NCBI GenBank assembly: GCA_036172245.1
Contig: JAYWIR010000060.1
Span: forward strand, 620,001-665,423
Direction: 5' to 3'
DNA length: 45,423 bases
From: Raillietiella orientalis
Lineage: Eukaryota
In this document: positions 1 through 45,423 of the stretch, piece after piece
Layout: the number at the start of each line of letters is the position of its first letter
How positions within the stretch are numbered: the stretch's first letter is position 1
Made by a program: the position numbers and the translations under genes
Notes under the pieces: generated by a model
What the model saw: only the letters and a program-made list of their open reading frames with translations
The model's database searches: none
What the model was told of the DNA's origin: nothing

Positions 1-81
1 CATGGCCGCCCTTCTGGGGTCCTACGACCTTGCGCTGCTGCAGGAGATCCACTTTATCTGTGCAGAACAAGCGCAAGAGAT
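1..81 (+). mobile_element. Family E non-LTR retrotransposon, N-terminal APE fragment (continues at 2357)
   Basis: Translates to MAALLGSYDLALLQEIHFICAEQAQEI (APE LQE-x-H motif). Ends in gcaagagat (73-81), which is duplicated at 2357-2365. Confidence 0.85.
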
Positions 82-2356
82 TTCTCGCCTGTCACGCAGG
101 GGCGTTCATTCCATATAACATAAACAAAAAAACAATTCTACAAAATAAACCAGCTGGGAACCGAACTCCCATCCAACGACTCAACAAGAATGAAGAGAAT
201 ATTGCTGGCACGCAGGCCAGAGTAACAATTTTGCGAACGGTGTAGGGGGGGCAGGGAACACAAAGAAACCAAAATAAAATAAAAACAATGAATAAGGAGG
301 AAGGAATAAGGGTCTTTGGAATCGCTCTGGAAGACACGGGGATAGAAGCATGGGCACCGGAAATTTTACCGAGCGTACGGGGACGGGGTATGGGTGGGCG
401 AGAGGTCGCAGGGGTCACCGGATTACGCCGTTCTCAAAGGTTTTTAAACCGGCGATGTATGCCGGTGATGTCCTCATTCACCTTGTCACGAAGATGAGAC
501 CACCTTGAAGCTTTCTCCATGAATTGAGCTGCAAGCAGGTGAGCCTCCCTTCGCTGCGCTGACAACTTCAGGGCGTAGCGGGCCTTCACGATGGCGCGAA
601 CGCAACACATGGTTGCGACAATCGCGCTAACCGAAAGTCCATTTCTGCTGAAGAAGCGCCGCAGCACATCAATGGCAGTGCCTCCTTGTGGCATGATGGC
701 CGAAGTGAGCCTTCGCCACAGTTCCCGGAGGTCACCGCAGTCCAGCAAAAGGTGCGGAAAAGACTCGATCTATCCGCACCTTAAACAGTTTGGCAAGGCA
801 GCTCCCCCGGAAACGATGCTTCGCTGCCTATTACAGTGTAATGCACAATGTAAAAACAGCAGCACATCTTGTTTCCACTTTAGGGGGAACACGGAGCTGT
901 CCAAACAAACGGGGGGAACCACTATCTCTACGGGGGGCACACTGAAATGTTCGCTCCACCGAAGCAGACCCTTCGCCCGATTCCGAGGAGTGGCGACTTG
1001 CACCAGATCCTTTGTCGTCCAGCTGCCGAGTAGCTTACTGACTCCCGCTATTTTGCAGGAGAACTTCCATTCCGCCGGTAGGCAACCGTCGTTGCTTGCC
1101 CTGAGGGCAGACAGCGCTGCGGCGAGTGGTGTGGCGGCCAGACGATCCGACAACTTCTTGTCCTGCATGACTTCGTCCATTTGATGACTGAGGAGAAGTC
1201 GCAGGCGTCGAAGATGTTCCAAGCGCGTTCCTTCGGAAGCTGCCCACGATGAAAAAGATTCCTGCCGCCATGCATCTATGTTCATGGGGCGGCATGAGAT
1301 CCAGCTTTGGGCTTCCAGCAGTGAGGACAGCTGCCTCAGCGGGAAGCCAAACCCTATTCTGGTGTGCCGAAAGTGGGGTAGCAACGAAAGCAGTCCCTCG
1401 CTTCCCGTGCAGCGCCTCAGGATAAGGCGTGCGGGTAAGCACCACGGCGTACACCACAGCTTGGCACAGAGCCGCAGCATGCGGAACTGCACCTGCAGTT
1501 CGATGCTGTTTAAGTCGAGGATGCCCAAGCCTGCATCCTGACGCGGCGCCACGAAATCTGTAAGTCTAACACGGGATCTTGCAGCGCCCCACAACGCTTT
1601 GCGTAGAAGACGCTGCGCCCAGACTTTGACTTCCTGGTAGGGTGGACAAACAAAAAACAGGGGGCGGAGGAGGGGGGCAACGAAGGTGTTCCAGATGTAG
1701 GCCCGTTCCGGCAAGACGAACTCGCCTCCTGAAAACGGGACAAGTGCACGTTCTGCCTTCCGAAGGCAGTCCGACCACGCTTCTATGATGCAGATGTCGC
1801 CCAACGGCACGCCAAGGTACCTGAGGTACCTGCCCGTGGGGATCCCCAGGTCGATCCAGTCGGACTGCCCCTCCCACGTCGCACCCACCGGAACAACCAT
1901 ACACTTACTCCTGTTAACGCTCACGCCCGCACCGCGACGAATCAACTCAAAGAAGCCTTCAAGCGATGTCGCCGGGGTGGACATGGGCAACAGGAGAAGC
2001 AGGTCGTCGGCATAGGCTGCCACGGCCGGCGTACCTGGACAGGAGCTCGGCAGGTTGGCTAGCGTCAGCCTGTAAGCCTCCAGCAGCAATTCAAAATCGA
2101 TGCTAAAGAGCAGTGGGCTTAAGCAGTCACCCTGCCTAATTCCTCGTCGTACCGGCACGCCGTACACGCGACAGCCACTGAAAACAATGGATGTAATCGC
2201 GTGGCGCCAGCAGGAGCGCAAGTACGCCAACAGGGATGCCGGAAGACCCAGACGTTCCAAAAGCTCAAGAAGAAGCTTTTGGTTCACGCAATCGAAAGCT
2301 TTGTGCAGATCGACTGCAACCGCCAAGGCTCCCGGTTTCTCCCTTTGCGTCCCTTT
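82..2356 (-). mobile_element. Family C element, copy C1, 5'-truncated (RT C-terminal half, zinc finger, 3' UTR)
   Basis: RT motifs DLHKAFD, GIRQGDCLSPLLF and AYADD; CLRC...HLLLDC zinc finger; T-rich 3' UTR with terminal hairpin; flanked by a 9-bp TSD gcaagagat. Confidence 0.9.
434..2356 (-). pseudogene. C1 ORF2, partial: reverse transcriptase and CCHC zinc finger, with in-frame TAG at 770-772
   Basis: ORFs 770..2326 and 434..748 are in the same frame; YADD motif present. Confidence 0.85.
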
Positions 2357-3666
2357 GCAAGAGATCGAACGGATCTACGAAGGGAGGCTGTGGTACAGGT
2401 GTGGGAGACCGAAAAGTTGCGGTGTCGCCTACCTGTTTCGGCCAGCCGTCGAGGCCGCTGCTCGGGGTGTGCGGTTCGACGATCACGGTCGTGTCGGCCA
2501 GCTGACTCTCAGGTGGTCCGTCACGATCGATCTGATCGTCACGAACGTGTACGCGCCGCTCGGTGCGTACACGTTCGTGACCAGGAGGGAGAGGAAAGAG
2601 TTTTTCCTTGCCCTCCGGCGAGACTGGCTGACCGAAGCAGGCGTGCGAAATGCCCATCTGGTTGCAGGCGATTTCAACGTTCGCCTGAAATTAGATGGGC
2701 AGAATCCCAAGCGTGACCTGGTCAACGAGGTGTGCATGGCGGTGCACACCTGTAATTTGTTGGCCAGTGCACTGGGGATGAAAGACAGCATTAACCACGT
2801 GTTTCTTGACGAGCACCTGTGCCCTCGCGTGGGCAGGCGCGGCAAGTTACCGTGCGAGCTGTCCGACCATCGCCCTCTAGTCCTCGAGATCCATCCGCGC
2901 GACAGGGGCCCCCCCTCGTCAGCGTGGCGTCTCCCAAGGGACTGGCTGAAGCTCCCGGACGCGGCAAAACATCTCCGCACGTTCATGTGGAGCTTCAGGC
3001 TGCAAACACTCCAGGATTGGGACCGCTTCAAGCAGTCGGTCCAGGAGTTCTGCGACCAGTTCCCTCTGCACCGCCTACCTACGGGTTTTGGGACCGGGGT
3101 CCGTAACGAACGAGCCTACCTGCAGGCCCGTCGTTAGGACTGGACCCCCGACATCCGCAGGCTGGCGGAATACAAAGCGGGAGCAAAGAGGCAAGCCTGG
3201 CAGTCCGGATCGGCCAGCTTGCTGGACGATCAGGACCAGGAGCACTCGGCACCCGCCGAAATCCGCGGCCTGCTGCGGAGTTACTACTCCTCCCTGTATG
3301 CCTGGGCACCTCCGGAGAGGAATCTCTTACGACTCCTGCTTCCGGAAGGCGCTCCAGCGATGGGGGAGGAGGAGAGAAAGACCCTCGAGGAGCCTTTCAC
3401 GATGGACGAGATCCTCTCGGCCATCGAAAAGCTCAAGACGCGAAAGGCTCCAGGGGAGGACGGCCTGCCCGCGGAGTTTTACCAAACTTTCGCGGCTGAG
3501 CTTATCCCCCTGGTACAGCAACTGACCTTGCTGATACGCGAAACAGGTGACGTTCCCGCCTCGTTTCGTTCGGCAAAGGTGGGGCTCCTCCCTAAGGGAA
3601 AAGATCTGAGGAGCATGAACAACTGGCGTCCCATCACAATAGTGAATGCGGACGCCTAGTTGCTAG
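2357..3666 (+). mobile_element. Family E element continued: rest of APE, linker and RT N-terminus (degenerate)
   Basis: NVYAP, AGDFN, SDH, KAPGEDGLPAEFY and NWRPITIVNADA motifs; stops at 3135 and 3657; cut at 3666 by element F. Confidence 0.88.
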
Positions 3667-5667
3667 TTGCCACCCGGTCACGCCGGGGCGTTGATTAAAA
3701 ATTCTCTATGATTCTTGGTACGAGGCCCCACTACGGCCAACGGAACTGGACCTGCCGGGTCGCCGGTACGCAGACCGGCGCGACTCTCCTCGGCAGCGGA
3801 AGGGGGTGGGGGAAAAAAGAAAAAGAAAAATAAAACATAAAAAACAAAGAGATTTGGGAGCGTTGGGGAGGAATCACTGACCACTGGGAGGAGGGTCCAT
3901 CCTTTGCAGGATGCCCTCGAGGTCCGTCCGTATAATTCCCAGGTGGGGCCATCTGGTCGCAATCCGCAGGTAGCGGACTGCAAGTACGACGGCATCCCTG
4001 TCGTGGCTCGGTCTTCTGACGTTGCTCCAGCACGTCACGATCCCACGTACGCAGCAAAGTGCAGCCAGGACAGCGGATGGTCGCAGGGTATCACGCACGA
4101 ACAAATGCCGAAAAACGTCTCTGGGCTGGCTGCCCTCCTGGTTCCGTAGGGAGGCACGAAGACGTTCCCAAAGGGGTCGGAGGGCAACACAGTCAACAAG
4201 TAGGTGGGGGAGCGATTTCCGCTCCCCGCACCTAGCACACTCAGGCCTTACACTTCCCCGCGTCCAGTGGAAGCGGCGCGCGTTGCAGGGTAGACACCAA
4301 TGCAAGAACAGAAGCGCCGACTCCTGCCACTTCAGTGGGAGGATCCTAGAACCAAGTAATACCGGGGACCACTTCAGGTCATCCGGCTGGATGCCGAGTA
4401 GCACGACCCATCTCTCAAGTCCTCTCGGATGGACACTAGGGGTAGTGGCGTCCGCCAGTTGCCCCGTGGACCAGACGCTTATCAACTTCTCCTTGCCTGC
4501 GATGCGGCAGGAGACTTGCCACCTAGGCTTGCGGCTGCTACAGAGCGCCCTCCTCAGAAAGAGCATCGCCGTAGATAGGGGGGTTGTCTCTGTTCACGTG
4601 CTTCTCGCGGGACACTGGAGTATCTTCCGCAGAGTGCAGCGGGAATAGGCGCCGCGTCGCAGGCAGTTCCACATTTCTTCATTCCTTTCATTAGTCTTCG
4701 CCTACGTGCCAGCTGTCTCCTGCAGCCATGCGGAGGAGTTGGCGAGGCTGCATACCATCCAGCCGTTTTCCTTAGCCACAGTTGCCATGCGTCCCATGAG
4801 CTCCAGCAGGAGATCCTGTTCCACGCAGTCAAACCCTTCATGCAGATCGACTGCGATCGCCAGGGCCCCCTTTCCCACCTGGGTGTACTGTGCCTGCCCG
4901 GCTGACGCCCTCGAAGCGGGGCTGCTAATCGTTCCGTCTTTCATTTCTTGACTACTCTGCACATGAAACCATGGGCTCGCGAAAAGAGGTTGGCCTCCAT
5001 ACTTCCCCCGGGAACAGCGTAAGTCTGCTCTGGGCTAATTATAGAATTGGCCACCTGCCCCAGACGCGGAGCCCACAGTCCGGCGATCAGCTTGGCGTCC
5101 GTATTCACAATTGTGATCAAACGCCAGTTGCTGAGTTTCCTGAGGTCTCCTCCTTTCGGAAGGAGCCTCACTCTGGCTGACCGAAACGAGGCGGGTACAT
5201 CGCCTTCATCTCGGATCAGCCTTGTCAACTCAAGCACCAGGGGTGCCCACACTGCCGCGAAACATTGAAAAAACTCCGCGGGCAGGCCGTCCTCCCCTGG
5301 TCCTTTCCGTCTCTTGAGCCTTTTGATACCGACGAGAATTTTGCCGGTGGTAAAAGGCTCGTCGAGGCTTTCCTTCTGCTCCTCCCCTATTGCCGGGGCA
5401 CCGTTCCGAAGCAAGCGCCGAGAGTCATCTTGGTCAGGGGGCGCCCTGGCATAAAGGAAAGAATAATAACGCCGCACGAGGTGCCGTACCGACGCCGGGG
5501 ACGAACATTCCCGGCCCTGGTCGTCCAGCAAGCTGGCCGACCCGGATTGCCAGGCTTGACGTTCGGCCCCGGCTCGGTACTCTGCCAGGCGACGGACATT
5601 GGGGGTCCTCGCGTAACGACGGGCATACAAGTACGCTCGTTCGTTACGGATCCCCTCCCCAACTCCC
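3667..5667 (-). mobile_element. Family F (A-related) element: linker, RT with internal deletion, zinc finger, 3' UTR
   Basis: ORFs 4941..5774, 4702..4962 and 3874..4566 are ORF2 pieces; CARCGERKSLPHLLVDC; 3' end reads ...cgccccggcgtgaccgggtggcaa. Confidence 0.85.
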
Positions 5668-5680
5668 TCTCCTCGAGAGC

Positions 5681-5694
5681 GGACGTGTTTTTCC
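5681..5694 (+). promoter_or_regulatory. Conserved 5'-terminal motif GGACGTGT(T/C)TTT, putative internal promoter or start-site element
   Basis: Recurs about 70-95 nt upstream of the ORF1 ATG in all five elements with intact 5' ends: 5681, 22525, 40874 (+) and about 13921-13932, 19472-19484 (-; the last has one mismatch). Function is inferred. Confidence 0.5.
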
Positions 5695-5767
5695 GGCGCT
5701 CCGCGAACGAGCAGCGGAAAGCGTTTTTTTTGGTTCAGTGTGTGCTTTTTCACATCGTTGGTGTCCG

Positions 5768-7519
5768 ATGGCATCGCTGCCAGAGGACACCACGATGGAG
5801 GTAGGCGTGAGGGAGGCTAGCCCCCCCCCACGACCTACAGAATCAGGGGCATCCGCCCCGGAATCGCCCTCGTCGCCCAAGACGAGGAGCTGGAGCGCCA
5901 TGGTCGCCGCGCCGAGCGCGGAAACCTTGGCTGAGCAAGCGGCCTACAGGGCCTCCGGATATAAACCATCCCTGGTTTATAAGGTAGGAAACCTGTTCGA
6001 CGGTCGCACCGCGCGTGCCTTTAGCAAGGCACTACAGGAATTCCCTGTGCGTGAGGAGGATCTTGACGGCCTCGCCGTACTCAGCGGGGGGCAACGCGTG
6101 GAGGTCGTCTGCAAAGACGTAGCCCTAGCGCAGCGCCTCATCAACACCCCGCTGAATGTGGCTGGCCGAAAGATCCTACCCGTTAGCATGGACCGCTCCG
6201 TAGTGGTCCATCTAACGGGGATCACGAACCGCATGACGCGCTCTGCGGTGAACGCGGAATTGAGGAAATACGGAGATGTGCACGCGCTGTGGCCAAAGCC
6301 AACCATTTTCGACGGCTATAACAGCCTCTTTGGTGGCCACGCAGCAGCGCGTGTCACCGTGAACGAGGGTGCTGGGTTACCCCACAAACTGGAGGTCAGG
6401 AAGGAGCCCGTCGACCTCTGGTACGTTGGGAAACCCCGCTATTGTGGATACTGCGATGCAGTAGGGCATGTGCGCAGGCGGTGCCCGAATATCGAGTGGC
6501 ACTTGTGCGGGGAAAAGGGACACGTCCGTCGTGTGTGCCCTAAACGCCCCACCCCGGTGCCACCTGCTGCCAAAAAGGCACAGGTGAAAAAGATGAATAA
6601 GGTCGAAAGACCTCATCGCGAGAATGGCCGGCCCCAGCAGCCTTCTCCTCCTCCTCCAACCCAGGCGGCGGCGGAAAAAACCGCGAAAGACGCGGGCGAG
6701 GAAGAAGGATGGACGCTGGTAAAGGCCAGAAAAGAACCCAAAAAGGGTTCACAAGAGAAGGCGGAGAAAAAGTTGGGCGCGAAGGCGAAAAAACCTGGTC
6801 CGCGATCTAAAACTCTCCGCGAGTGCTCGGTAGCACTGGAGCGCATCAGCGTTCCCGAGGCTGCCACCCGGGGCGACGAGCCTCCCCTCGCCGTTTCCGC
6901 CGCGCCCGAGGTTTGCGACGGCGAACCCTCTGTTTGCACAGAGGGTGAGACGCGCGACGCGCTCGCCGCCGGCGAGGACGCCGCCTTCGCGAAGGCGGCG
7001 GAAGAGCTCGCAGCCACGCTGGCTGAGCGTGAGAACCCCTCACGCAAGGCCGTACGATCGCCGGCTTCGCCGAAGAAGGCCCCCGCAGGTGAGTGCGACC
7101 TGGGGGCCGGAAGTGCATCCTCCTCGTCAGGGGCACCCCCCCGGAAGACGGGACGCAAGTCCCAAAAGCCGAGGAAGCGCCTCCCCTCCACGAGCGAGGA
7201 GGAGAGGCAGGAAGACGCCGGCAGCGTGGGAATCCCGGAGGAAGAGCTCCCACGCGCGGAAGCCGTCGAGCAGGACACCCTCATGGAGGAGGGTGAGCAG
7301 GGGGGCGAAATCCCCCCTGCCGTCGCGGACCCTGAGGAGCCCACCCCTATGGAGGAGGGCCAGCAGATAGGCGCGACCCCACCTGAGGGTGACCCGCTCG
7401 ACGCGCCGTCACAGATGGAGCAGGGGGACCAGGTGCTCGAGGCACCTGTCCCTCCTGCTCCACCTAGCGTCCCGCCTCAACAGGTGGCGGACGCCACAGA
7501 GCCGATTTCCCAGGAATAA
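5768..7519 (+). CDS. A1 ORF1: gag-like nucleic-acid-binding protein, 583 aa
   Basis: ATG at 5768 is homologous to the ATG at 40969. Knuckle CGYCDAVGHVRRRC; second knuckle has C->W (WHLCGEKGHVRRVC); Lys-rich then Pro/Glu-rich C-terminus. Confidence 0.9.
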   Translation: MASLPEDTTMEVGVREASPPPRPTESGASAPESPSSPKTRSWSAMVAAPSAETLAEQAAYRASGYKPSLVYKVGNLFDGRTARAFSKALQEFPVREEDLDGLAVLSGGQRVEVVCKDVALAQRLINTPLNVAGRKILPVSMDRSVVVHLTGITNRMTRSAVNAELRKYGDVHALWPKPTIFDGYNSLFGGHAAARVTVNEGAGLPHKLEVRKEPVDLWYVGKPRYCGYCDAVGHVRRRCPNIEWHLCGEKGHVRRVCPKRPTPVPPAAKKAQVKKMNKVERPHRENGRPQQPSPPPPTQAAAEKTAKDAGEEEGWTLVKARKEPKKGSQEKAEKKLGAKAKKPGPRSKTLRECSVALERISVPEAATRGDEPPLAVSAAPEVCDGEPSVCTEGETRDALAAGEDAAFAKAAEELAATLAERENPSRKAVRSPASPKKAPAGECDLGAGSASSSSGAPPRKTGRKSQKPRKRLPSTSEEERQEDAGSVGIPEEELPRAEAVEQDTLMEEGEQGGEIPPAVADPEEPTPMEEGQQIGATPPEGDPLDAPSQMEQGDQVLEAPVPPAPPSVPPQQVADATEPISQE

Positions 7520-10500
7520 CACCTGGGCTCGCCTGTCGCCGTCGAATCCGCGTGGCCAGTTGGAACGTCAACGGGCTGCGCGACGACGGCAACAGACGAG
7601 ATACGGCCGACACCCTGCGTGAGTTCGACCTGGCCCTGCTGCAGGAGATCCACGTTATCACCGCGGCAGACGCCCAGGAGATCGAGACGATCGCAGGGGG
7701 TCGGTTGTATTGGCGATGCGGCGCCCGCAACACCTGTGGGGTCGCGTTTTTCGTGAAGCCGGCCATTGACGCTGCCGTGAAGGGCGTACGCTTCGATGAC
7801 GACGGTCGGGTCGGTCAGCTGATTCTCAGCTGGTCCGACTCGATCGAATTGATCGTCACGAACGTGTACGCCCCAAGCGGGAAAGGGGGATACAGCGACC
7901 GTACCAGGTTGCTGGAAACCCTGAAGCGCGACTGGCTGGCCGATACGAACGTGCGGAAGGCACACCTGATAGCTGGGGACTTTAATCTCCGTCTGCTGTC
8001 AGGTGAGCCCGAAGCACAAGAACGCACGGCCAACGAGTTGTGCGCTGCCATGCGCACGCGCAACTTGTTGACGGACGCGGAGGGAATGGACCGCAGCATC
8101 GACCACTTCTTCCTGGATGTCGACCTGTGCTCGCGGGTCGGCAAACGGGGAAAAGTTGCGTCGACGCTGTCGGACCATTCCAGGATCATCGCCAAGGTTT
8201 GCTCGCGCGACAAAGGACCCCCGTCCAGGGCGTGGCGGCTGCCTGGGGACTGGACGCGGCTCTCAGGTGCGAAAGAACACCTTCGCGAATTCCTGAGAGG
8301 CGTCACCCTCCGCAGTCTCCAAGACTGGGACCTCTTCAAGGCCTCGTTCCGCGAGTTCTGCGAGGAGTTTCCCCTGCACCACCTGCCTCCCGGATTCGGG
8401 GAGGGGGCTCGGAACCATCGGGCTTATCTACAGGCCCGCCGGTACGAGAGGACCCCGAATGTCCGTCGCCTCGCGGAATATCGAGCCGGGGCCGAACGCC
8501 AAGCCTGGCAATCCGGGTCGGCCAGCTTGCAGGACGACCAGGGCCGGGAGCGATCCGCCCCACCCGCGATCAGGCACCTCGTGCGACGTTATTACGCCTT
8601 CCTCTACGCTAGGGCACCCCCAGAGCGGAACGCCTCGCGGCTCCTGCTCCCGGATAGGGCCCCGGCAATAAAGGAGGAGGAGAGGATCAGCCTCGACGAG
8701 CCTTTTTCTACCGGTGAAATTCTCGCCGGTATTAAAAGGCTCAACAGGCGAAATGCGCCAGGGGAGGACGGCCTGCCTGCAAAATTCTTTCAATGTTTCG
8801 CGGCAGAGCTGGCCACCCTGGTGCTTCAGTTGACCGGGCTGATCCGAGACGAAGGCGACGTTCCCTCCTCGTTTCGGTCAGCCCGTGTGAGGCTCCTCCC
8901 GAAGGGAGGAGACCTGAGATCCCTAGGCAACTGGCGTCCGATCACAATTGTGAATACGGACGCCAAGCTGATCGCTGGACTGTGGGCTTCGCGTCTAGGA
9001 CAGGTGGCAGACTCCATAATTAGCCCGGAGCAGACATACGCTGTTCCCGGGCGAAGTATGGATGCCAACCTGTTCTTCGCGAGCACATGGTTCCATGTGC
9101 AACGCTGCCTGAATGAAACTGGAGGAAAGATTGGCAACCCCACTTTGGGGCCGCCAGCTGGACTGGGAATGGACACCCGGGCTGGGAAGGGGGCCCTAGC
9201 GATCGCGGTCGATCTCCATAAGGCGTTCGACTGCGTTGACCAGGAGCTACTGTTGGAGCTTTTGGGTCGCATGGGCTTCCCACCCTCCCTTCTCTCCTTC
9301 CTGCGCTCCTGCTGGCGCAACGCCATAATTAACATCTGCTTTTCCAGCCAACAGTTGTACGGCGTGCCGGTGCGGCGGGACATACGGCAGGGCGATAGCC
9401 TCAGTCCCCTGCTCTTTAGCACCTACTTTGAGTTGGTGCTGAGAGCGTACAGGGTGACTTTGGCTGCCCTGCCCAGCTCGTGCCCCGGCACGCCCGCCGT
9501 TGCAGCATACGCCGACGACCTTCTGCTCATGTTGCCCATGTCCGCCCCGGCAGCCGCAGTCGAGGATTTCTTCGACCTGCTAAGTCGTGGGACTGGACTG
9601 CGGGTAAACAAGGCGAAGTCGTCGGTCGTACCGGTGGGTGCGACGTGGGTCGGACGGCCTGACTGGATCCGCTTCGGGATCCCCGCGGCCAGGTACCTGA
9701 AGTACCTAGGTGTCCCGTTGGGGGACTTCTGCCTCGCAGAAGCCTGGTCAGGTCGTCTCCAAAACGTAGAGTTGGCAATCGGCCCGTTCCTGGAAGGCAA
9801 GTTCCTTCTGCCGGAACGGGCCGCGGTGTGGAACGCCTTCGCGGCTCCCATCCTCCGCTTTCTGCTTTTTGTGTGATCCGTCCCCCGTGACATTAAAAAG
9901 AGGACAAAAGACCTACTCCGCATCGCCCTCTGGGGCAGCGGGAAGCCACGTGTGCCTCTGGATGATTTATGCGCTCCTCGTCGGGACGGCGGTCTAGGCC
10001 TCCTGACGCTAAAGCGCCTGGAAATACAGCTGCGATGGCGCACCCTCGCCATCGCAGCAAAGTCATGGAGCACCTTTTGGTGCGCTCCGGCCCGAATCCT
10101 CGCCAGCCGTGTGTCCAGGACGCAAGGACTCGCGTCGTACCTTCTGTGCTTCGGCAGGAAGGTGAGAAGATGCGGCCTTCTTCTTGGACGCATGGGAGCC
10201 CTGGTCAGAGACAACGGCTGGACGGTATGCAGCCCCGTCAACTCCTCGGCCTGGCTGGAGGAATCAGTTGCGACGTGGGCCAAGCTGAACCTCCAGACTT
10301 CCCCGGAATGGAACCGCCTGCGATTCGGCCCCAACGCCCGCTGCACACTGCGGACTACTCTGGAGTGTCCCGCCAATAGCGCGTGGGCGGAGACCACCCC
10401 TCTAGCTTCGACCCTGCCCTTCCTCCGGAGGGCTTTAACCAGCGGCCGCAAGCCAAAGTGGCAAGTCTCCTGCCGAATCGCAGGCAAGGAGAAGAAGATG

Positions 10501-11115
10501 AGCGGTTGGACCATGGGAGAACTGGCGGATGCCACGACCCCGAGTGCCCTCCCTCGTGGACTTCGTCGATGGGGCGAGCTGCTCGGCATCCCGACGGATG
10601 ACCTGAAGTGGCCCCCAATACTGATAGGATCCAGGCTTCTCCCCCTGAAGTGGCAAGATTCGGCGCTGCTGCTGTTGCACTGGGGTCTACCCTGCAACGC
10701 GCGCCGCTTCCACTGGACGCGGGGGAGTGTAAGGCCTGAGTGTGCCAGGTGTGGGGAGCGAGAATAGCTCCCCCACCTACAAGTTGACTGTGCTGCCCTC
10801 CGACCCCTGTGGGAACGGTTCGGGACGACCTTCGGTCTCCCAATGGGCAGCGCGCCCAGAGACGTTCTTCGGCACCTCTTCGTGCGGGACGCCCTGCAGC
10901 CCGCCGCAGCCCTCGCAGCCCTCTGCTTTATCCGGGGCATCGTGGCGGCATGGAGCGACATTCGCGACGAAGGAGTGGATGCCAACGTGAGGGATGTCAT
11001 CCCGTATGCGGTCTGCTTCATGCGGAGAGCAGCGAGATGGCTCCATCTACGAAACATGAAGATGGACCTAGAGGGCATCCTGCGAAGGATTGACCCTCTT
11101 CTATGTGGATTGTGA
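7519..11115 (+). pseudogene. A1 ORF2: APE, RT and CCHC zinc finger (about 1198 codons), two premature stops
   Basis: SWNVNG, LQE, NVYAP, GDFN, IDH, SDH; DLHKAFD, QGDSLSPLLF, YADD; CARC..H..DC. ORFs 7552..9876, 9952..10767 and 10843..11115 share one frame. No ATG at the N-terminus. Confidence 0.92.
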
Positions 11116-11196
11116 TCCCTTCCTCTCCCTCCAAACTCTTTTTTTTGTTTACCTTATCTTTATTTTTCTTTTTGTTTTGATCCCTATCCCCCTCCA

Positions 11197-11323
11197 CTGC
11201 CGAGGAGCGTCACGCCGGGCTGCGTCCCGGCAGGTCCGGTGTTGTGTGGCCGTTAGTGGGGCCTCGTACCACGTTTATGCAGAGTTTTTTTCAATAAACG
11301 ATCCGGGCGTACCCGGGTGACAA
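11197..11323 (+). other. Structured 3' UTR: CTGCGT-loop hairpin, GGCC hairpin, AATAAA and terminal CCGGG hairpin
   Basis: gccggg-ctgcgt-cccggc (11214-11231); ggcc-gttagtgg-ggcc; aataaa; ccggg-cgta-cccgg. The first and terminal hairpins have homologues at the other element 3' ends. Confidence 0.65.
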
Positions 11324-13855: not shown

Positions 13856-13936
13856 TGCTGCCTAATCCTCCACCCACACCACGCACAAGCACCAACGGAA
13901 ATGGAACTCAGGAGCAACGAAAAGACACGTCCGCTC

Positions 13937-22507: not shown

Positions 22508-22520
22508 CCTCCAGGCCAGA

Positions 22521-35699: not shown

Positions 35700-36349
35700 T
35701 ATGGTGGGGTGGAAGAAACCGCCTCCTGTTCAGAAGACGGGTGGTCCGGGTCCATGTCGTTGGAGTGTTCAGGAGCATCGCTCACTCCGTCGGCCGTGAA
35801 CTGTGTTTACAGTTGGTAAAGGATGCTCTCAGGCACGGAGTCGCATTGTGCAACGCACATGGACTCTTCCTCGCTGTCAGATGCCATTTCAACCTCTTCC
35901 TGAGAGGTGACAGCACGCCTACGAGCACCTGTTGCATTTTTATGTTTTCTTTTCGGCAAGCCAACGGAGGGCGAGTTCCCGCTTTCGGCGTCAGACTCGG
36001 AGGTTTCCGGGTCTTTTGCCGTAGCCGGGCGTCGAACGGCCTTCTTCTCGGCCTTGACGGGCTGCCTCAGGAAGGCAGCCAACTCTTCCGCGGCTTGCGC
36101 GAAGTTTGCATCAGAGATGCGTTCCACGTCATCACGGATTTCGCCGCCTGTTGGCGAGTCGGGTGACGTAACAACCGATTCGATAGCGGCAACTGGCGCG
36201 CTATCGTTCGGAACCGCAGCGGCTGAGCTTTCGCTCGCCGCTACAACGCTCCCAGTGGACTGGACTGGAACAACCATTTCGATCGCGGCAACGTGTGCCG
36301 CGCTATCGATCGCGACCGTAGCGATTTCGCCGCACGAAGCCGGAAACGC
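35699..36349 (-). pseudogene. C2 ORF1 C-terminal part
   Basis: FAQAAEELAA..KKAVRRP motif shared with the other ORF1s. Internal TAA at 35807-35809; probable true stop at 35699-35701. Confidence 0.75.
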
Positions 36350-39291
36350 TTTTTCACCCGGATATGCCGGCGCATTTATTCAAAAGAATAAAATTACAAT
36401 GGATTGTCGCGTGTTGAACCCAAGGGTCCATCACTACAAAACAGCTTGGTATTTACCGGCGCGATGCCGGAGAGGTCCATCCGATGCGCGGGGGTTGGGA
36501 AAGAAAAAAAAAAACAAACAAACAAATAGTTGAAGTATGGGAGGGAAGAAATGTTTCGGGAATGGGAGGGCAGGGAGGGGATCACCGTGCGCGCGGATAG
36601 GTCCTCTAGATCCTATTCAGGATCCGTACAAGCTGAGTCCTCTCTGCGCCCAAGTGGCGCCACTTGCAGACGTCTCGGACGAATAGGCGAGTGAACCGTA
36701 AGGCGTTCTCGGTTGGCTGACGTCTTCTTCTGGTGGCGTTCCAAGCCGCCACGATCCCTCGAATGCAGCAGAGGACTGCTACAGAAGAGGGGGAGGACAA
36801 GCCGTCACTACGGAAGAGGAGCCTAAAAACGTCCTTAGGGCCGCATCCGTGCAAGTCCAGGATCGCCGGGAGACGATCCCATAAAGGGCGGATGGCACTG
36901 CACTCGATGAGAAGGTGGAAGAAGGTCTCTTTTTCCCCGCACCGGTCACAATAAGGATCCACGGCCCCCCGGGTTGTGTGATGAAGGCGTGCTTTGAATG
37001 GAAGTCCCCAGAGGACCACAAGCAACTCCACATCCTGCCATTTCAGGGGGAGGGATCCACTGTTCCAGGACGCCGGGGGCCACTTCATCTCCTCCGGAGA
37101 TGATACGAGTAGCTCGCCCCAGCGTCGAATTACGTTGGGCGGGACTCTCGGCGTCGCAGCGTCCGCTAGCTGCCGAGATGTCCACGCCATAATCGTTTGT
37201 GTCCTGCCTCCAATGGTGCAGGACACGTACCATTTCCCAAGCTCCCTACTGTCCCTGGCGTCGATGAGGAAGAACAGCACTGGGGCAAGGGGGGTTATCA
37301 AAGCCCACATGCGCTATTCGTGGGACTGCACGATCTCCTGCAGTTTCCAGCGGGCGTGCCTTTGCAGGCAAGTGTTTCTTGTGCCCGCCGAAACGTGGAT
37401 CTTTACCCAGGTGGACACTGACTCGTGCAGCCATGCAGAGTAGTTCCCTGGGCGGCAGGAGATCTAGGCGTTCTCCCGTACCGCAACTTCCATGCGACGC
37501 AGGAATAAGCAGCCGTGTGCTTCTCTGCGGTCGCGTGCCAGCAGAAACGACAAAAGTCCGTCGCATCCGTAGGCTCGTTGGGCCAGGAGGCGTGCTGGAA
37601 CGCACCAAGGCGTGTCCCACAATTCCGCTGCAAGAGCGAGAGTCCTGAACCTAAGTTGTAGTTCAATGCGCTCCAGCGTAAGAACGCCTAGTCCTCCGTC
37701 CTTACGTGGAGCGCACAAGTCTTTGAGCCTCACACGGGACCTCCCTTTGCCCCAAAGGACTGTCCTCAGGAGGCCCGCTGCTCGTTTTCGGATAAAATAA
37801 GGGGCGAGGCAAACAAAAAGTAGGGGGCGAAGGAGGAAAGCCGCAAACGCGTTCCACACCGCGGCCCGTTCCTGCAAGTAGAACTTGCCTTCTTGGAACG
37901 GACCGATCGCCAACGCTGCCTTTTGGAGACGGTCGGACAGGGCTTCTGCTGCGCAGAAGTCCCCCAACGGTACGCCGAGGTACTTGAAGCACCTGGCCGT
38001 GAAGATCCCCAAGCGGATCCAGTCCGACCGTCCAGCCCACGCCGAACCGACGAAGACCATGGACGACTTCGCCCTATTCACCTCCAGACCCGTCCCGCAA
38101 CGCAGCAACTCGATGAAGTCCTCGAGTGCACTCGCCGGGGTGGACCCGGGAAGCAGCAGCAGAAGATCGTCTGCATAGGCCGACACGGCAGGCGTGCCGG
38201 CACACGAGCTCGGCAGGGCTGCCAGAGTTACCCTGGATGCCCTCAGCACCAGCTCAAAGTAGATGCTGAAGAGCAAGGGGCTTAGGCTGTCACCCTGCCG
38301 GATGCCGCGGCGTACGGGCACGCCGTACACGTGCCGGCCGCTGAAACCGATATTGATTGACGCGTTGCGCCAGCAGGAGCGCAGGTAAGATTGAAGCACG
38401 GCAGGGAAACCCATGCGTTCCAGGAGCTCCAGAAGGAGATCCTGGTCGACGCAGTCGAATGCTTTGTACAAATCGACCGCGACGGCAAAGGCTCCCGCCG
38501 AGTCCATCCCACCCTCTGCCCGATCTTCTTGGTCAGAGGGGGGCGCGAGGCTCCCTTGACCGTCCTGTGCAACGCGTTGTCGCAACTGCCACCATGAGCT
38601 GGCGAGGAGCAGGTTGGCCTCCATGGTTCGTCCGGGAACAGCATAGGTCTGCTCGGGACTCACCACGGAAGCGGCCACCCGCCCCAAACGCTCAGCCCAC
38701 AACTTGGCATACAACTTTGCGTCCGCATTCACTACTGTGATGGGACGCCAGTTGCCAATGTTGCGTAAGTCTCCTGACTTCGGCAGGAGACGTACTTTTG
38801 CTGACCGGAACGAGGCGGGAACTTCGCCGTGTTCGCGGATCAGCGTACTTAACCTGAGCACCAGGGGGGCCAGCTCTGGCGCGAAGTGTTTGTAAAACTC
38901 CGCGGGCAGGCCGTCCTCCCCTGGTGCCTTCCTTCTCTTGAGCCTGTTGATGGCGGAGAAGATCTCCGCCATCGTGAACGGTTCCGCCAATCTGGAACGG
39001 TCCTCCTCCTTGAGCGCGGGAGCGCCATCCGGCAGCAGGCGCTGCGCGAAATGGCGCTCAGGAGTGAGTGGCGCGTACAAGGAGGAATAAAAGTCCCGCA
39101 CGATGCGGCTTACCTGGGCTGGGCTGGAGCGTTCTTGGCCCTGATGATCCAGCAGGCAGGCCGAGCCTGACTGCCAGGCCTGCCTCTCCGCCTCAGCCTT
39201 GAATTCAGCCAGGCGACGGTCGTCGGGACGCCGGGAATAACGGCGCGCCTGGAGGTACGCCCGCTCGTTCCTGACACCCTCACCGAAGCCC
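36350..39291 (-). mobile_element. Family D-like element, copy D2: linker, RT, zinc finger and 3' UTR; host of A3/A4
   Basis: ORF 37464..39101 with SAYADD; CDRCGEKETFFHLLIEC; ends aataaatgcgccggcatatccgggtgaaaaa; broken at GFGE. Confidence 0.9.
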
Positions 39292-40839
39292 TTTCCTGGA
39301 AGGCAAGTTTCACTTGCCGGAACGGGCCGCGGTTTGGAACGCCTTCGCGGCCCCCGTACTCCGCCCCTTGCTTTTTGTTTGCCCCGCCCCCGTGGAATCG
39401 AAAAAGCGGACGAAGGACCTCCTCCGCATAGCTCTTTGGGGCAAGGGGAGGCCCCGAGTCCCTTTGAAGGACTTGTGCGCTCCGCGTCGGGACGGCGGTC
39501 TCAGCATCCTGACGCTGGAGCGCGTGGAAATCCAGCTGCGATGGCGGACCCTCGCCATCGCAGCAAAGATGTGGAGCACCGCTTGGTGCATTCCGGCCCG
39601 TCTCCTGGCCAGGCGTGTGTCCCGCTGCGAAGGACACGCATCGTTTCTCTTGTGCCCTGGCCGGAAGATTCGAAGATGCGGTCTACTGCTCGGCCGCATG
39701 GCAACCCTGGCAAAGGAGAACGACTGGATGGTTTGTGTCCCTGCCAACTCCTCCGCTTGGCTGAAAGAGACTGCTGGCACCTGGGCCAAGCTGAACCAGA
39801 GGTGCGAAGACCAGATGAACTGCCTGCGAGTCGGCTTTTACGCCCGCCGAACTCTCCGTGGAATACTTGAATTTCCACCGAGTTGCACGTGGGCGGAAGG
39901 CACACCCCTTGTTACGGCGATGCCCTTCCTCCAAAGGGCGCTTCACGAAAGCCGGAAGCCAAGGTGGCAAGTCTGCTGCCGTATCGCAGGCAGAGAGAAG
40001 ACGATGAGCGGCTGGACCATGGGAGAGTTGACAGATGCAACGACCCCTAGTATCCAGCCGCGTGGATTAAGAAGATGGGGCGAGCTGCTCGGCATTCGAT
40101 TGGATGACCTGAAGTGGCCCCCGGTTCTACTTGGATCCAGGATTCTTTCCCTGAAGTGGCAAGAATCGGCGCTTCTGTGGCTGCATTGGGGTCTACCCTG
40201 CAACGCGCGCCGCTTCCACTGGACGCGGGGAAGAGTAAATTCTGCGTGTGCCAGGTGTGGGGAGCGGGAGTCGCTCCCCCACCTCTTAGTTGAATGCCCT
40301 GCCGTCCGGATTCTTTGGAAACGTCTTCAAACGGCACTTGGGATACCGGATGCTGTCAACGGTGGATGTATCTTCAGTCTTTTCTTCGTGCGGGACGCCC
40401 TCAGTCCAGCTGCAGCCCTGGCAGCACTTTGCTTCATTCGTGGTATAGTGGCGGCCTGGAGTGATGCCGAAGATGAAGACTGCATCGTGAGGAATGTCAT
40501 CGAGTATGCTTCTCGCTTCCTGCAGAGAGCTACCCGATGGACCCATCTAGGAAGGATGAAAAAGGAACTAGAAGGCATCCTGCAAAGAATGGGCCCTCCC
40601 AGCAGTTTTCTGTGATCCCTTCCCGGCCCTCCAAACTTTTTTTTGTGGTTTGTTTTTCTCTTTTATTTTATTTTTGTGTTCTCCCCCATCCCCCTCCACT
40701 GCCCAGGAGAGCCACACCGAGCTGCGTCCCGGTGTCCCGGCAGTTCCGGTATTGCGTGGCCGTCAGTGGGGCCTTGTACCACGTTCTGTATTGACCGTTG
40801 AAATGTTTTTAATAAACGTCCCGGCGTATCCGGGTGGCA
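39292..40839 (+). mobile_element. Family A element, copy A3, 5'-truncated (open 433-aa ORF2 C-terminus and 3' UTR)
   Basis: ORF 39314..40615 with CARCGERESLPHLLVEC; TSD tcaccgaagccc(tt) at 39280 and 40840. Confidence 0.92.
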
Positions 40840-40968
40840 TCACCGAAGCCCTTCGCCGAAAGCCGGTGTGGGTGGACGTGTTTTTTGGTCGCTACGCCAG
40901 CGCTTGTCTGGGAAGCACCCGGAGTTTTTTAGTGTAGTCAGGTGTAAAGTGTGGGTCGTCGGTGTCCG

Positions 40969-42720
40969 ATGGCAGTTGTGCCAGAGGACACCGCGATGGA
41001 TGTAGTTGTGGAAGAGGCAAGTCCTCCCACAAGACCTACAGCTATGGGGGCAATAGTCCCTGGAACGTCTTCGCAGCCGGCGAAGACTTGGAGTGAAATG
41101 GTCGCCGCCCCCAGTGCGGAGGCCATAGCCGAGGAAGCCGCCTATCGGGCCTCTGAATACAAGCCATCGCTTGTATACAAGGTAGGCCCTTTGTTTGAAG
41201 GAAACACGGCGCGCTCTTTCAGCAGAGCGCTTCAAAATTCTAATGTCCGTGAAGAAGATCTGGAAGGTCTGTGCGTGCTCAGCGGGGCGCAGCGGGTTGA
41301 GCTGGTGTGCAAGAGCATCAGCCTAGCCGATCGCCTTATAAATACCCCGTTGATCATGGACGGTCGAAAGATCTTCCCGGTGTCGATGGACCACTCGGTT
41401 GTGGTCCACTTGACAGGAATATCCAAGCGCATGACGCGCACTGCAGTGAAGGACGAATTAAGCAAGTACGGGGACGTACACGCGCTGTGGCCGAAGCCCA
41501 CAATCTTTGAGGTCTACGGACGCCACTTCGGGGGCCTCGCCGCGGCACGTGTAACCCCAAAAGACGAAGCGAAGCTACCCCACAAACTTGAGGTCGCGGG
41601 AGAACCGGTAGACCTCTGGTATGCGGGCAAGCCACGGTATTGCGGCAACTGCGATGCGGTCGGACACATCCGAAAGAGGTGCCCAAACATCGTATGCTAC
41701 TTGTGCGGGGAGAAGGGACACGTCCTTCGCGTGTGCCCTAAACGCCCCACCCCGATTCCCTCGGCCGCCAAAAAGGCGCAAGGGAAACGCGCGGGGAAAG
41801 AAAAATTGCAGAACCGTGAAACTGGCCGAGAAAAGCTGCCAATAACCCAAGCTCCCAGCGCGGCATCGGAGAAAAATCTTCCCGAGACCGCAGAGGGAGA
41901 ACAGGGCTGGCAGCTAGTCAAAGCCAAAAAAGAGAAAAAGGACAAGCATGTCCCGAAGAAAGGAGAGAAGGCGGCGGCCGGAACAAAAGCTAAATCCGTG
42001 TCGCGCGTAAAAACTCTCCGAGAATGCACGGTTACGCTGGAGCGCATTGACGTTCCCGCCGACACCACCGCAGGCGATACGGCTTCGATGGATTTTCCCG
42101 CCGCGGCGAATGCGCGCGAAAACCCACCCCCTGCTTGCGACGAGGGTCAGCCGGACGACAAAATCGCCGAAACGGAGGACGCAGCCTTCGAGAAGGCCGC
42201 GGAGGAGCTCGCGGCAACGCTTGCCGAACGCGAGAACCCTTCGCGAAAGGGGTTGCGTTGGCCGGCAGCGGCTAAAATGGCCTCCGCAGGTGAGTCGGAC
42301 CGGGAGGCCGGAAGTGCATCCTCCTCTGCGGAAGCACCACCAAGGAAAGCGGGGCGAAAATCCCAGAAACCCCGAAGGTGCATTCCGCCTCCGCGCGAGG
42401 GGGATCCAATGGAGGAGGAACCAGTGGATGACAGCGTGGGAGCCCAAGTCGGGCATTACCCACGTGCGGAAGCCGACGAGAAGGCGACTCCAATGGTGGA
42501 GGGTAACCAGTGGTCAGCAATGCCCTCTGAAACCGCCGAACCTGAACCACCCGCACCAATGGATGTGGGCCAACAGGTACGAACAACATCCCCTTCGCAC
42601 GGGCAGCCGGAGACGTCGGCACGTAAGAAGGATGGGGAGTTGGTGGGCGAGACGCCAACCCCGTCCAGCGACCCGCCCCAAAAGGTGGCGGGAGCACCAC
42701 CGCCAGGTTCCCAGGAATAA
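40969..42720 (+). CDS. A4 ORF1: gag-like protein with two intact CCHC knuckles, 583 aa
   Basis: CGNCDAVGHIRKRC and CYLCGEKGHVLRVC. Confidence 0.92.
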   Translation: MAVVPEDTAMDVVVEEASPPTRPTAMGAIVPGTSSQPAKTWSEMVAAPSAEAIAEEAAYRASEYKPSLVYKVGPLFEGNTARSFSRALQNSNVREEDLEGLCVLSGAQRVELVCKSISLADRLINTPLIMDGRKIFPVSMDHSVVVHLTGISKRMTRTAVKDELSKYGDVHALWPKPTIFEVYGRHFGGLAAARVTPKDEAKLPHKLEVAGEPVDLWYAGKPRYCGNCDAVGHIRKRCPNIVCYLCGEKGHVLRVCPKRPTPIPSAAKKAQGKRAGKEKLQNRETGREKLPITQAPSAASEKNLPETAEGEQGWQLVKAKKEKKDKHVPKKGEKAAAGTKAKSVSRVKTLRECTVTLERIDVPADTTAGDTASMDFPAAANARENPPPACDEGQPDDKIAETEDAAFEKAAEELAATLAERENPSRKGLRWPAAAKMASAGESDREAGSASSSAEAPPRKAGRKSQKPRRCIPPPREGDPMEEEPVDDSVGAQVGHYPRAEADEKATPMVEGNQWSAMPSETAEPEPPAPMDVGQQVRTTSPSHGQPETSARKKDGELVGETPTPSSDPPQKVAGAPPPGSQE

Positions 42721-45423
42721 CACCTGGACTCGCCTGTCGCCGTCGGATCCGCGCGGCCAGTTGGAATGTTAACGGGCTGCGCGACGACGGAAAAAGACGA
42801 GATACAGCCGCCACCTTGCGAGATTTCGACCTGGTGCTTTTGCAGGAGATCCACGTGATCACCGCAAAAGACGCTCAGGAGATCGAAACGATCGCGGGAG
42901 GGCGGTTGTACTGGCGATGCGGCGCCCGCAACACTTGTGGGGTCGCGTTCTTCCTAAAGCCAGCCATTAACGCAGCCGTGAAGGACGTGCGCTTTGGGGA
43001 CGACGGACGGATCGGCCAACTGATTCTCAGATGGTCCGATTCGATCGACCTCATCGTCACCAATGTGTACGCTCCTAGCGGTAAACAGGGATACCAGCAG
43101 CGCAACGCGTTACTGCAAACCTTAAAGCGCGAATGGCTGGTGGACGCGGACGTGCGAAAGGCGCATCTGATAGCAGGGGATTTCAACGTCCGTCTGCTCT
43201 CAGATCAGCCCGGAGCACAGGGGAACGCGATCAACGAGTTGTGCGGCGCCATGCGCGCGCTTAACTTGTTGACAGAAATAAGCGGGATGGTCAACAGCGT
43301 GGACCACGTCTTCCTCGACGAAGACCTGTGCACACGGGTCGGAAAACGAGGGACGCTTGGATCGACGCTGTCGGACCATTCCCGGTTAGTATTCGAGATG
43401 CGCCCGCGCGACAAGGGACCGCCATCCAGGGATTGGCGTATGCCAGGGGACTGGACGCGCCTGTCAGGAGCGAAAGAACATCTTCGCGAATTCCTGCGAG
43501 GCGTCACCCTCCAGAATCTCGCGGATTCGGACCTATTTCAGGACTCGGTCCGGGAGTTCTGCGAACAGTTCCCAGTGCAACGTCTGCCCCGGGGATTCGA
43601 CGAAGGGGCTCGCGACGAACGCGCGTATTTGCACGCGCGTCGTCACGAGAGGAACCCCAATGTCCGTCGCCTGGCCGAATACCGCGCCGGAGCCGAGCGA
43701 CAAGCCTGGCAATCCGGGTCAGCCAGCATGCTGGATGACCTGGGCCGGGAACGTTCGTCCCCGTCTGCGGTACGGAATCTCGTGCGGTGTTTTTATTCCT
43801 CCCTTTACGCCAAAACTCCACCCGAACAAGACGCCTCGCGGCGATTGCTCATGAGTGGTTCCGTGGCCATAGGGGAGGAGGAGAGAGAAAGCCTCGATGA
43901 GCCTTTCACGACCGGTGAAATTCTCGCCGGTATCAAAAGGCTCAAGAGGCGTAAGGCGCCAGGGGAGGACTGCTTGCCCGCGGAGTTCTTTCAGAGTTTC
44001 GCGGAAGAGCTGGCCCCCCTGGTGCTCGAGTTGACAAGGCGAATCCGAGACGAAGGCGATGTTCCCGCCTCGTTTCGGTCAGCCAGGGTGAGGCTCCTCC
44101 CGAAGGGAGGAGACCTCAGGAAACTTTGCAACTGGCGTCCGATCACGATTGTGAACACGGACGCCAAGTTGATTGTCGGGATGTGGGCGTCGCGATTGGG
44201 GCAGGTGTCCAATTCCATAATTAGCCCGGAGCAGACATACGCTGTTTCCGGGCGAAGTATGGAGGACAACCTCTTCTTCGCGAGCACATGGATGCACGCG
44301 CAGCGGAGTAATAAAGAAGGGAAAGGGAAAATTTGTAACCCTACTTTGGGGCCGCCAGTGGGACAGGGTAGGGACCCTCATGCGGGAAAGGGGGCCTTAG
44401 CGATCGCAGTCGACCTCCATAAGGCATTCGACTGTGTTGACCAGGAACTCCTCTTGGAGCTCCTGGGTCGCATGGGCTTCCCACCCTCCTTGATTTCTTA
44501 CCTGCGCTCTTGCTGGCGGAACGCGATAATCTCAATTACTTTCAGTGGACAAAAGGTGTATGGCGTGCCGGTGCGGCGGGGCATAAGGCAGGGCGACAGC
44601 CTCAGCCCCCTGCTTTTTAGCACCTACGCTGAGTTGGTGCTGAGAGCGTACAGGGTGACTTTGGCCCCCTTGCCGAGCTCGTGCCCCGGCACGCCAGCCG
44701 TAGCGGCGTATGCCGACGATCTTCTGCTCCTCTTACCTATGTCCACCCCTGCGAAGGCGGTCGGAGATTTCTTCGACCTGCTTAGCCGTGGGGCCGGATT
44801 ACAGGTTAACAGGGCGAAGTCGTCAGTGTTGCCAGTTGGAGCGACGTGGGCAGGGCAGCAGGACTGGGTCCGTCTGGGGTTCCCCACGGTGAGGTGCATC
44901 AAGTACCTCGGTGTGCCGTTGGGGGACTTCTTCCCTGCGGAAGCGTGGTCCAGCTGCCTCCAAAAAGTCGAGACGGCGATCGCCCGTTCCTGGAAGGCAA
45001 GTTTCACTTGCCGGAACGGGCCGCGGTTTGGAACGCCTTCGCGGCCCCCATACTCCGCCCCTTGCTTTTTGTTTGCCCCGCCCCCGTGGAATCTAAAATG
45101 CGGACGAAGGACCTCCTCCGCATAGCTCTTTGGGGCAAGCGGAGGCCCCGAGTCCCTTTGAAGGACTTGTGCGCTCCGCGTCGGGACGGCGGTCTCAGCA
45201 TCCTGACGCTTGAGCGCGTAGAAATCCAGCTGCGATGGCGGACCGTCGCCATCGCAGCGAAGATGTGGAGCACCGCTTGGTGCATTCCGGCCCGTCTCCT
45301 GCCCAGGCGTGTGTCCCGATGCGAAGGACTCGCATCGTTTCTTCTGTGCCCTGGCCGGAAGATTCGAAGATGCGGTCTACTGCTCGGCCGCATGGCAACC
45401 CTGGCAAAGGAGAACATCCGTTG
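42720..45423 (+). pseudogene. A4 ORF2: APE and RT, 1-bp deletion frameshift near 44982
   Basis: SWNVNG, GDFN, SDH, GIRQGDSLSPLLF, AYADD; atcgcccg here versus atcggcccg in sister copies. Confidence 0.9.

Follow-up and report, generated by a model that had tools for sequence, protein, structure and literature searches.

How does a stretch of DNA come to consist of nothing but retrotransposons, each lying in or beside another? The question is raised by 45,423 nucleotides of Raillietiella orientalis (contig JAYWIR010000060.1, positions 620,001 to 665,423), which a sequence-only reading had interpreted as a community of L1/Tx1-like elements that insert into each other's coding sequences. This whole stretch is called the window below, and coordinates are counted from its first base. 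As judged from their junctions, at least four families of long interspersed nuclear elements (LINEs), A1, Z, C and B, are likely to use sequence-specific target-primed reverse transcription to enter coding motifs that are conserved in related LINEs.

When the open reading frames (ORFs) of one copy, W (ORF1 at 17749-19413 and ORF2 at 14324-17845, both on the minus strand), were used as tblastn queries, 38 high-scoring segment pairs on both strands tiled the window. Nineteen element pieces, with boundaries read from these pairs, sum to 45,423 of 45,423 bases and leave 0 bases of non-LINE DNA, confirming that essentially the whole window is retrotransposon; about 61 bases (28846-28906) were placed by reading frames only. 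The G+C content is 55-64% throughout. By nucleotide identity the pieces belong to about nine related families: A1 (L, M and S, 97% identity), B (W, Y and O, 93-95%), C (C1 and C2, 93-96%), D (V, P and probably U; 89% between V and P), H (H1 and n, 85%) and the single-copy families Z, E (fragments d and e), N and T (element T, probably with fragment m). All junction counts concern this one 45-kb window, and insertions outside LINEs lie beyond its reach.

Junctions at conserved codons

All 11 element 3' ends adjoin another LINE, in agreement with the earlier claim that every resolvable 3' junction lies in or next to another element. Three of these ends, those of Z, S and M, fall at one nucleotide, directly past the first base after the Gly-Phe-Gly (GFG) codons of ORF2, and are antisense in the hosts Y (family B), m and N, respectively. 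Ten host copies span this position, and four of them (Y, E, m/T and N) are broken exactly there, each beside a Z or A1 end. One of these inserts is M (39292-40840, plus strand; family A1, 5'-truncated at about ORF2 amino acid [aa] 786), which has a perfect 11-bp target site duplication (TSD), CACCGAAGCCC (11/11; 39281-39291 and 40841-40851), made of the antisense GFG codons of N (36349-39291, minus; a copy that starts at GFG and reaches its 3' end). The 5' junction of L (40852-45423, plus; family A1, running from its 5' end to ORF2 aa ~930, where the window ends) lies at the same GFG site of N. Between the TSD of M and the core of the 5' untranslated region (UTR) of L are 22 extra nucleotides (40852-40873, plus) with a second GFG-like antisense sequence, TTCGCCGAAAGCC.., possibly a 5' transduction of the target of a master copy or the remnant of an earlier event. 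The third A1 copy, S (26886-27703, plus; 5'-truncated at aa ~1030), is antisense at the GFG codons of a host consisting of m (27704-28210, minus; ORF2 aa ~120-328, ending ..PPGFG, with one in-frame stop) and T (23928-26885, minus; ORF2 from just past GFG to the 3' end). Here about 6 bp of the target are lost and there is no duplication. S and M match at 791 of 815 positions, their downstream flanks at only 55 of 94 (97% versus 58%).

The context of Z (5668-11323, plus; full length, with ORF1 open and ORF2 frameshifted) is more complex. On either side of Z stands an 11-mer, CCCCAACTCCC (5657-5667) and CCCCAAATCCC (11324-11334); the two differ by one base and are the antisense GFG codons of two hosts from different families. 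On the left is E (3656-5667, minus), a member of the Z/V/L supergroup that extends from GFG-equivalent (GVG) codons to a 3' end at 3656, antisense in H1; on the right is Y (11324-13954, minus), the 5' part of a family B copy comprising the 5' UTR, ORF1 and ORF2 up to ..PAGFG. The simplest account would be that Z inserted twice independently and that the two copies then recombined unequally, which would also explain the absent halves of H1 and V. On this account there would be five GFG events in four host families.

How selective is the GFG site? The degenerate 10-mer GGNTTYGGNG has nine matches in the window, not above shuffled sequence; seven of them are at GFG codons, and four of those flank an A-type insert. 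At the nucleotide level the occupied sites have little beyond TTYGGNG in common, and GFG sites are present yet unoccupied in Z, W and C2. Repeated insertion of A-type elements at GFG was nevertheless a claim that the window supports at base resolution, for A1 and Z at one nucleotide, with a TSD, antisense orientation and diverged hosts.

Family C uses another site. C1 (82-2356, minus; 5'-truncated near ORF2 aa 588) ends at 81/82, antisense in H1 at QAQEI codons, and divides this host into a left piece (1-81, plus; ORF2 to ..EQAQEI) and a right piece (2357-3655, plus; ORF2 aa ~85-516, ending ..IVNADA), with the 9-bp TSD GCAAGAGAT (9/9) at 73-81 and 2357-2365. C2 (31770-36348, minus; 3' UTR, ORF2 and the 3' part of ORF1) ends antisense at the QAREI codons of O (31204-31769, plus), a family B fragment that runs from ORF1 aa 423 to ORF2 ..DQAREI. 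The QA(R/Q)EI codons are broken in two of eight spanning copies, both times by family C. The two inserts match at 465 of 499 and 1690 of 1753 positions (93-96%), their host flanks at 61 of 80 (76%), and the truncation of C1 at aa 588 is unlike the long C2. Hosts more diverged than their inserts, together with unlike truncation, indicate that C1 and C2 are separate insertion events. A 14-mer taken from the C site has five matches against 0.27 expected; two of the five are occupied, and those in W, Y and n are free. Since unoccupied matching sites exist for both GFG and the C site, the targets are not saturated. The repeated insertion of C at QAxEI described earlier is seen at two base-resolved antisense junctions in diverged hosts, with a 9-bp TSD.

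Family B uses a third motif. W (13955-19506, minus; full length, both ORFs open, 3' tail GGGTTACAA) adjoins V (19507-22508, plus), a family D host that runs from ..Q|NRDLFK (ORF2 aa ~288) to its 3' end. At the 5' end of W, 17 nucleotides in the frame of V read T-L-R-N-L-Q and are followed by NRDLFK of V, and this TLRNLQ stretch matches the homologous TLRSLQDWDLFK of Z. The same 17 nucleotides form a perfect direct repeat (17/17; 13938-13954 and 19490-19506), whose first copy, lying between the 3' tail of W and the 5' UTR of Y, makes up the first 17 nucleotides of Y. TLRNLQ is broken in one of eight spanning copies, V, by family B. Of the proposed recurrent use of TLRNLQ by B, one true host site stands, and the second support is the site copy at B 5' ends.

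Junctions inside ORF1 are less uniform. The 3' end of P (28907-31203, plus; family D, 5'-truncated at aa ~537) lies sense in ORF1 of O, ahead of PKAGKKA, and is a clear junction of D into ORF1. The other case put forward, U (22509-23927, plus; a 5' part whose identities fit family D, with its 5' UTR and ORF1 to ..KKAPTG), has only an ambiguous 16-nt tag, CTCCAGGCCAGATGGA, before it. The target of P and this tag align at ~14 of 20 positions with gaps, so that site specificity of family D is only suggestive. T ends antisense in ORF1 of U and N ends sense in ORF1 of C2; no common target was seen for these two elements of related families whose 3' ends lie in ORF1. By orientation, all seven 3' junctions inside ORF2 are antisense; of those inside ORF1, T is antisense and P and N are sense.

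Three head-to-tail pairs occur, W>Y and M>L of the same family and V>U probably of the same family, each with a short target copy between the partners. An upstream TSD copy keeps its upstream context and could be hit again, which would yield such pairs, and we infer that they arose by re-insertion into this copy, with the newer element on the 5' side.

Could such coincidences arise by chance? In simulations that scattered 11 junctions uniformly over a 5.55-kb element, with two orientations allowed, at least four coincident pairs appeared in 4 of 2,000,000 runs (~2e-6). Positional clustering relative to a random model, which the sequence-only reading had put forward as a genome-wide check, is found for the junctions of this window.

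A model of insertion and its rivals

The ends of the elements offer a first view of how insertion might proceed. All 11 copies that keep the ORF2 C terminus share a terminus (for example, 11293-11323, plus) of an AATAAA-like signal, a 5-bp GC hairpin, GTG and a family-specific tail of 3 to 16 nt, and poly(A), a 3' feature of the L1 superfamily, is found at 0 of 11 3' ends. The tails read GGCAT in A1, GACAA in Z, TTACAA in B, GAGAAA in C and GTAAAC in D. A relaxed regular expression for this terminus hits 15 places, the 11 true ends and four false matches inside ORFs. The hairpin stem is almost invariant and hence provides no covariation support, leaving conservation as the sole evidence for a role of the hairpin. 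One two-sided stem change occurs, in C1, but this copy is dead and the change pairs CpG-to-TpG with CpG-to-CpA, so that it gives no evidence of selection. Full-length copies also share the start of the 5' UTR, GGACGTGT, which reads GAACGTGT in W.

What has to be explained is that the 3' junctions are precise, that the TSDs measure 9, 11 and possibly 17 bp, that the orientation in ORF2 is fixed and that insertions recur across diverged hosts. In the model that we favor, the apurinic/apyrimidinic-type endonuclease (APE) would nick the sense strand of the host at a fixed, family-specific nucleotide: after GGN TTY GGN G for A1 and Z, within GAGAT for C and after ..AATCTCCA for B. The element RNA would be recognized probably through its conserved 3' hairpin, and reverse transcription would begin exactly at the RNA 3' end, as in a "stringent" LINE; because the tails share no sequence with the targets, priming would proceed without base pairing. 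Second-strand cleavage 9-17 bp away would then be staggered and produce the TSD, and the target regenerated in the upstream TSD copy could be hit again, building tandem arrays step by step. Conserved codons would be dependable, harmless multicopy targets, a "safe haven" in evolutionary terms. Later unequal recombination between like copies would scramble the nest, which may be why two hosts flank Z. That relatives' conserved sites serve as targets, the core of the sequence-only reading, is backed by four families at base resolution, the evidence being TSDs, an antisense orientation and inserts that are more alike than their hosts.

Several points weigh against this model. The events are few (at most five A-type, two C and one or two B) and come from one 45-kb window. 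The GFG core is short and wobble-degenerate, and two further 10-mer matches inside W are unoccupied, so recognition needs either more than the 10-mer or a regional cue. The 5' flanks are unlike the 3' host in three cases (E versus Y for Z, n versus O for P, and n versus U for T/m), and rearrangements must therefore be invoked. The proposed role of the hairpin is without covariation support, and W, the sole copy with both ORFs open, carries SHH in place of SDH in its endonuclease.

The strongest rival is that the elements are directed to a region, such as a centromere or heterochromatin, where a nick motif of 6-7 nt suffices and relatives are hit through abundance rather than recognition. Since the window is 100% LINE, any insertion lands in a LINE, and the occupied GFG sites share only TTYGGNG with wobble-variable flanks; regional confinement also has a precedent in Zepp and ZeppL, whose clusters occupy a single location per chromosome (PMC3446292, PMC8226300). 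What speaks for site recognition is that all A-type ends lie at one homologous position in one orientation, though the 10-mer occurs twice elsewhere unoccupied, that each of three different families has a single site of its own, and that the exact nucleotide is kept across hosts only 58-76% alike. We regard regional targeting as unlikely, although it retains some weight.

Might the recurrent junctions instead go back to one event each, multiplied by segmental duplication, gene conversion or unequal crossing-over? The region is indeed rearranged, with Z between halves of two host families, and families are mosaic, N and C2 being 87-96% alike for ~900 nt and then ~50%. Copying of one event is contradicted by the divergence of hosts and inserts, the flanks being 76% alike against 93-96% for the inserts in C and 58% against 97% in A1 (overall, inserts 93-97% alike and host flanks 58-76%), as well as by differing truncation points (aa 588 for C1, unlike the long C2, and aa 1030 for S as against aa 786 for M) and by TSDs that are host specific. 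Duplication, which had been named as one of the outcomes that would undo the interpretation, is accordingly very improbable as the source of the recurrence. Least credible of all is homology-guided joining, in which RNA or cDNA pairs with a related copy, so that the site is set by annealing or template switching and is not chosen by the endonuclease: hosts and inserts are related and 5' junctions show microhomology (GG at T|S; ~12 nt at n|m), but the tails GGCAT, GACAA, TTACAA and GAGAAA are unlike the targets, the inserts are antisense at sites not homologous to their own 3' ends, and the clean TSDs point to staggered cleavage.

Returning to site-specific insertion, a further question is whether the families spare themselves. 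Each insertion into a conserved codon motif disrupts ORF2 of the host copy, and in three families the own copy of the target has diverged beside the nick: A1 has GFD (GAC) for GFG, C has AGQDFE for QA(R/Q)EIE, and B has RMQTLQ for TLRNLQ. These differences raise the tentative idea, which we hold to be rather doubtful, that sister LINE families home reciprocally into the ORFs of their rivals, each with its own base-precise target and protected by its diverged motif. Self-immunity is opposed by Z, which retains a perfect GFG site, and by the small sample of only one or two copies per family. If true, it would amount to an intragenomic arms race between retrotransposons and would supply a set of APE endonucleases retargeted in nature, all from a clade of 62-69% identity.

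Coding capacity, mosaicism and relatives

Both ORFs are open in W alone, which encodes an ORF1 protein of 554 aa and an ORF2 protein of 1173 aa. Its ORF2 matches Exo_endo_phos (PF03372, 5e-13) and RVT_1 (PF00078, 3e-23) in Pfam, as does that of C2, revealing the L1-type architecture of an N-terminal APE followed by reverse transcriptase (RT), and a C-terminal Cys/His motif is also present in ORF2. The best solved-structure match of W ORF2 is human L1 ORF2p (E=1.4e-47), with R2 at ~1e-10 to 1e-15. For the label L1/Tx1-like, the evidence extends to L1-type domains and the match to human L1 ORF2p. In ORF1, a zf-CCHC domain passes the cutoff in L (1e-6) and fails it in Z (0.008), and W has no match; the ORF1 translations show two Cys-His knuckle-like strings. 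An ORF1 with CCHC knuckles is what we take to be the plant/Tx1-type ORF1.

Despite its open frames, W may be inactive: its endonuclease reads SHH at the position of an SDH that is invariant in the other five aligned copies. In the C-terminal Cys/His motif of W, Ser replaces the first Cys. The endonucleases (for example, that of Y, 11534-12212, minus) have 9 residues in place of ~27-31 in human L1 endonuclease (query 182-192, chain 170-198/202), a stretch that in the human enzyme holds a hairpin loop reported as crucial for DNA recognition (PMC1950540). An AlphaFold model of the endonuclease built from a five-sequence alignment was too poor and was set aside (mean predicted local distance difference test score 51, below 50 for residues 155-260).

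The ORF1 stop and ORF2 start overlap as TAATG in family B (17735-17765, minus; 12198-12228, minus; 31585-31615, plus). Z (7505-7535, plus) and L (42706-42736, plus) have TAACA at this place and no ATG, and their ORF2 reads ..GITPGL where family B has ..AIMPGI. The pattern hints at coupled termination-reinitiation or else at a start codon other than AUG. UAAUG overlaps are also found in other LINEs.

Further fragments and oddities accompany the main junctions. E has an in-frame internal deletion at 4774-4791 (minus), of about ORF2 aa 619-920, and the two sites that the deletion brings together each encode ..L(L/M)GRM.., indicating either deletion through microhomology or template switching by the RT. 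Its 3' tail (3656-3675, minus) ends in a tandem 7-nt duplication, CAACTAG twice; the tails of other families are short. The family H fragment n (28211-28906, minus) covers the start of ORF2 to aa ~238, and at its junction with m (28196-28217, minus) ~12 nt can be read either as ..EHLCP of n or as ..APVPFEE of m, an overlap that represents microhomology where a truncated copy begins at its 5' end. N (36349-39291, minus) and C2 (31770-34817, minus) are 87-96% alike for ~900 nt past the GFG codons and ~50% alike beyond, in the C-terminal region and 3' UTR, and H1 is 85% identical to family B in ORF2 aa 332-526. The families thus seem partly mosaic, and recombination between them seems common.

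Where do these elements belong? The ORF2 proteins of the other families are 62-69% identical to that of W. In an exhaustive protein search the nearest public proteins were 23-37% identical and mostly unnamed, with two exceptions, the 619-aa fragment P0069 at 70% and a 132-aa fragment at 66%. Taken together, these values indicate that one L1-type lineage, so far poorly sampled, has radiated locally. P0069, from a 2,870-bp contig of the Joint Genome Institute, is 59-70% identical to every family of the window and may stand for one more family of this clade, the tenth, sampled from the environment. Among metagenome contigs, alignment with ORF2 identified 144 relatives; the best 80 were 21-35% identical and none was close. 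Alignment with viral contigs gave no relative. A scan for the 3' motif returned one match in viral contigs and 45 single matches in GTDB genomes, in records with prokaryote titles, all uninspected and presumed to be chance. Three public runs (X1-X3), compared over 13900-33400, contain only short contigs, mostly 90-99% alike; contigs of X1 cover 30 of 30 bins at 90-99% identity, indicating that further copies exist in public data. None of the contigs of the three runs over this interval bridges a junction with at least 31 letters on both sides, so they add no junctions.

Relation to known site-specific and nested LINEs

Few LINEs are site-specific, and such elements are in demand as models and tools for gene insertion that is safe and programmable. 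Among the families of the window, the target has apparently changed several times between close relatives: two families use GFG, one QA(R/Q)EI and one TLRNLQ, and further families may have their sites in ORF1. How an APE-type LINE is retargeted could be learned from a comparison of their endonucleases and 3' ends. The window also offers a base-level mechanism for LINE-only clusters of the Zepp kind, in which insertion at conserved codons followed by re-use of the regenerated target would build tandem arrays, and it opens the possibility that retrotransposon families compete through mutual disruption. No description of several LINE families that each target a codon site of the others was found in the literature searched, which consisted mostly of titles and abstract openings.

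In published accounts, R1 and R2 in ribosomal DNA and TRAS and SART in telomeres are stringent site-specific LINEs that use target-primed reverse transcription at a multicopy target and form precise 3' junctions (PMC1919474, PMC7265360). Unlike these elements, whose targets are host genes or repeats, the families here have as their multicopy target other LINEs of the same clade. The HeT-A and TART elements of Drosophila are summarized as same-family head-to-tail telomeric arrays (PMC5537684). Such arrays grow by addition to chromosome ends, whereas the tandem pairs of the window are parted by an internal target copy, fitting re-use of a TSD.

Zepp of Chlorella and Coccomyxa and ZeppL of Chlamydomonas are GC-rich L1-type LINEs that occur almost exclusively in compact clusters of nested, tandem and often 5'-truncated copies, and their insertion is reported to target existing copies (PMC8226300, PMC3446292, PMC9940879). 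The clusters are thought to mark centromeres (PMC8226300, PMC3446292, PMC9940879, PMC11005252 and a 2025 preprint). The window resembles them in having nested and tandem copies inside existing copies, here with 19 pieces, about nine families and three tandem pairs. The accounts consulted mention one or two ZeppL families per species and neither a codon-level target nor families that target each other. The window differs from these accounts in its roughly nine interleaved families, base-precise family-specific sites and absence of poly(A).

The closest precedent for specificity is Tx1L, a sequence-specific APE LINE inserting in the DNA transposon Tx1D of Xenopus laevis and cited in reviews as a transposable element that targets another (PMC1950540, PMC6719617); transposons are also among the listed targets of sequence-specific LINEs (PMC4640811). 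Like Tx1L, whose endonuclease nicks one defined sequence, the families of the window are APE LINEs with one defined target inside another transposable element, the nicking by the endonuclease being deduced here from the junctions. A defined target with a TSD, the hallmark of the Tx1 group, is found for A1/Z, C and B, and the Tx1 likeness is one of specificity. Unlike Tx1L, which targets a DNA transposon, these elements use neither a DNA transposon nor an RNA gene but coding motifs of related LINEs, and several sister families each use a different site in several directions. The system is therefore best filed as Tx1-like site specificity combined with Zepp-like self-nesting.

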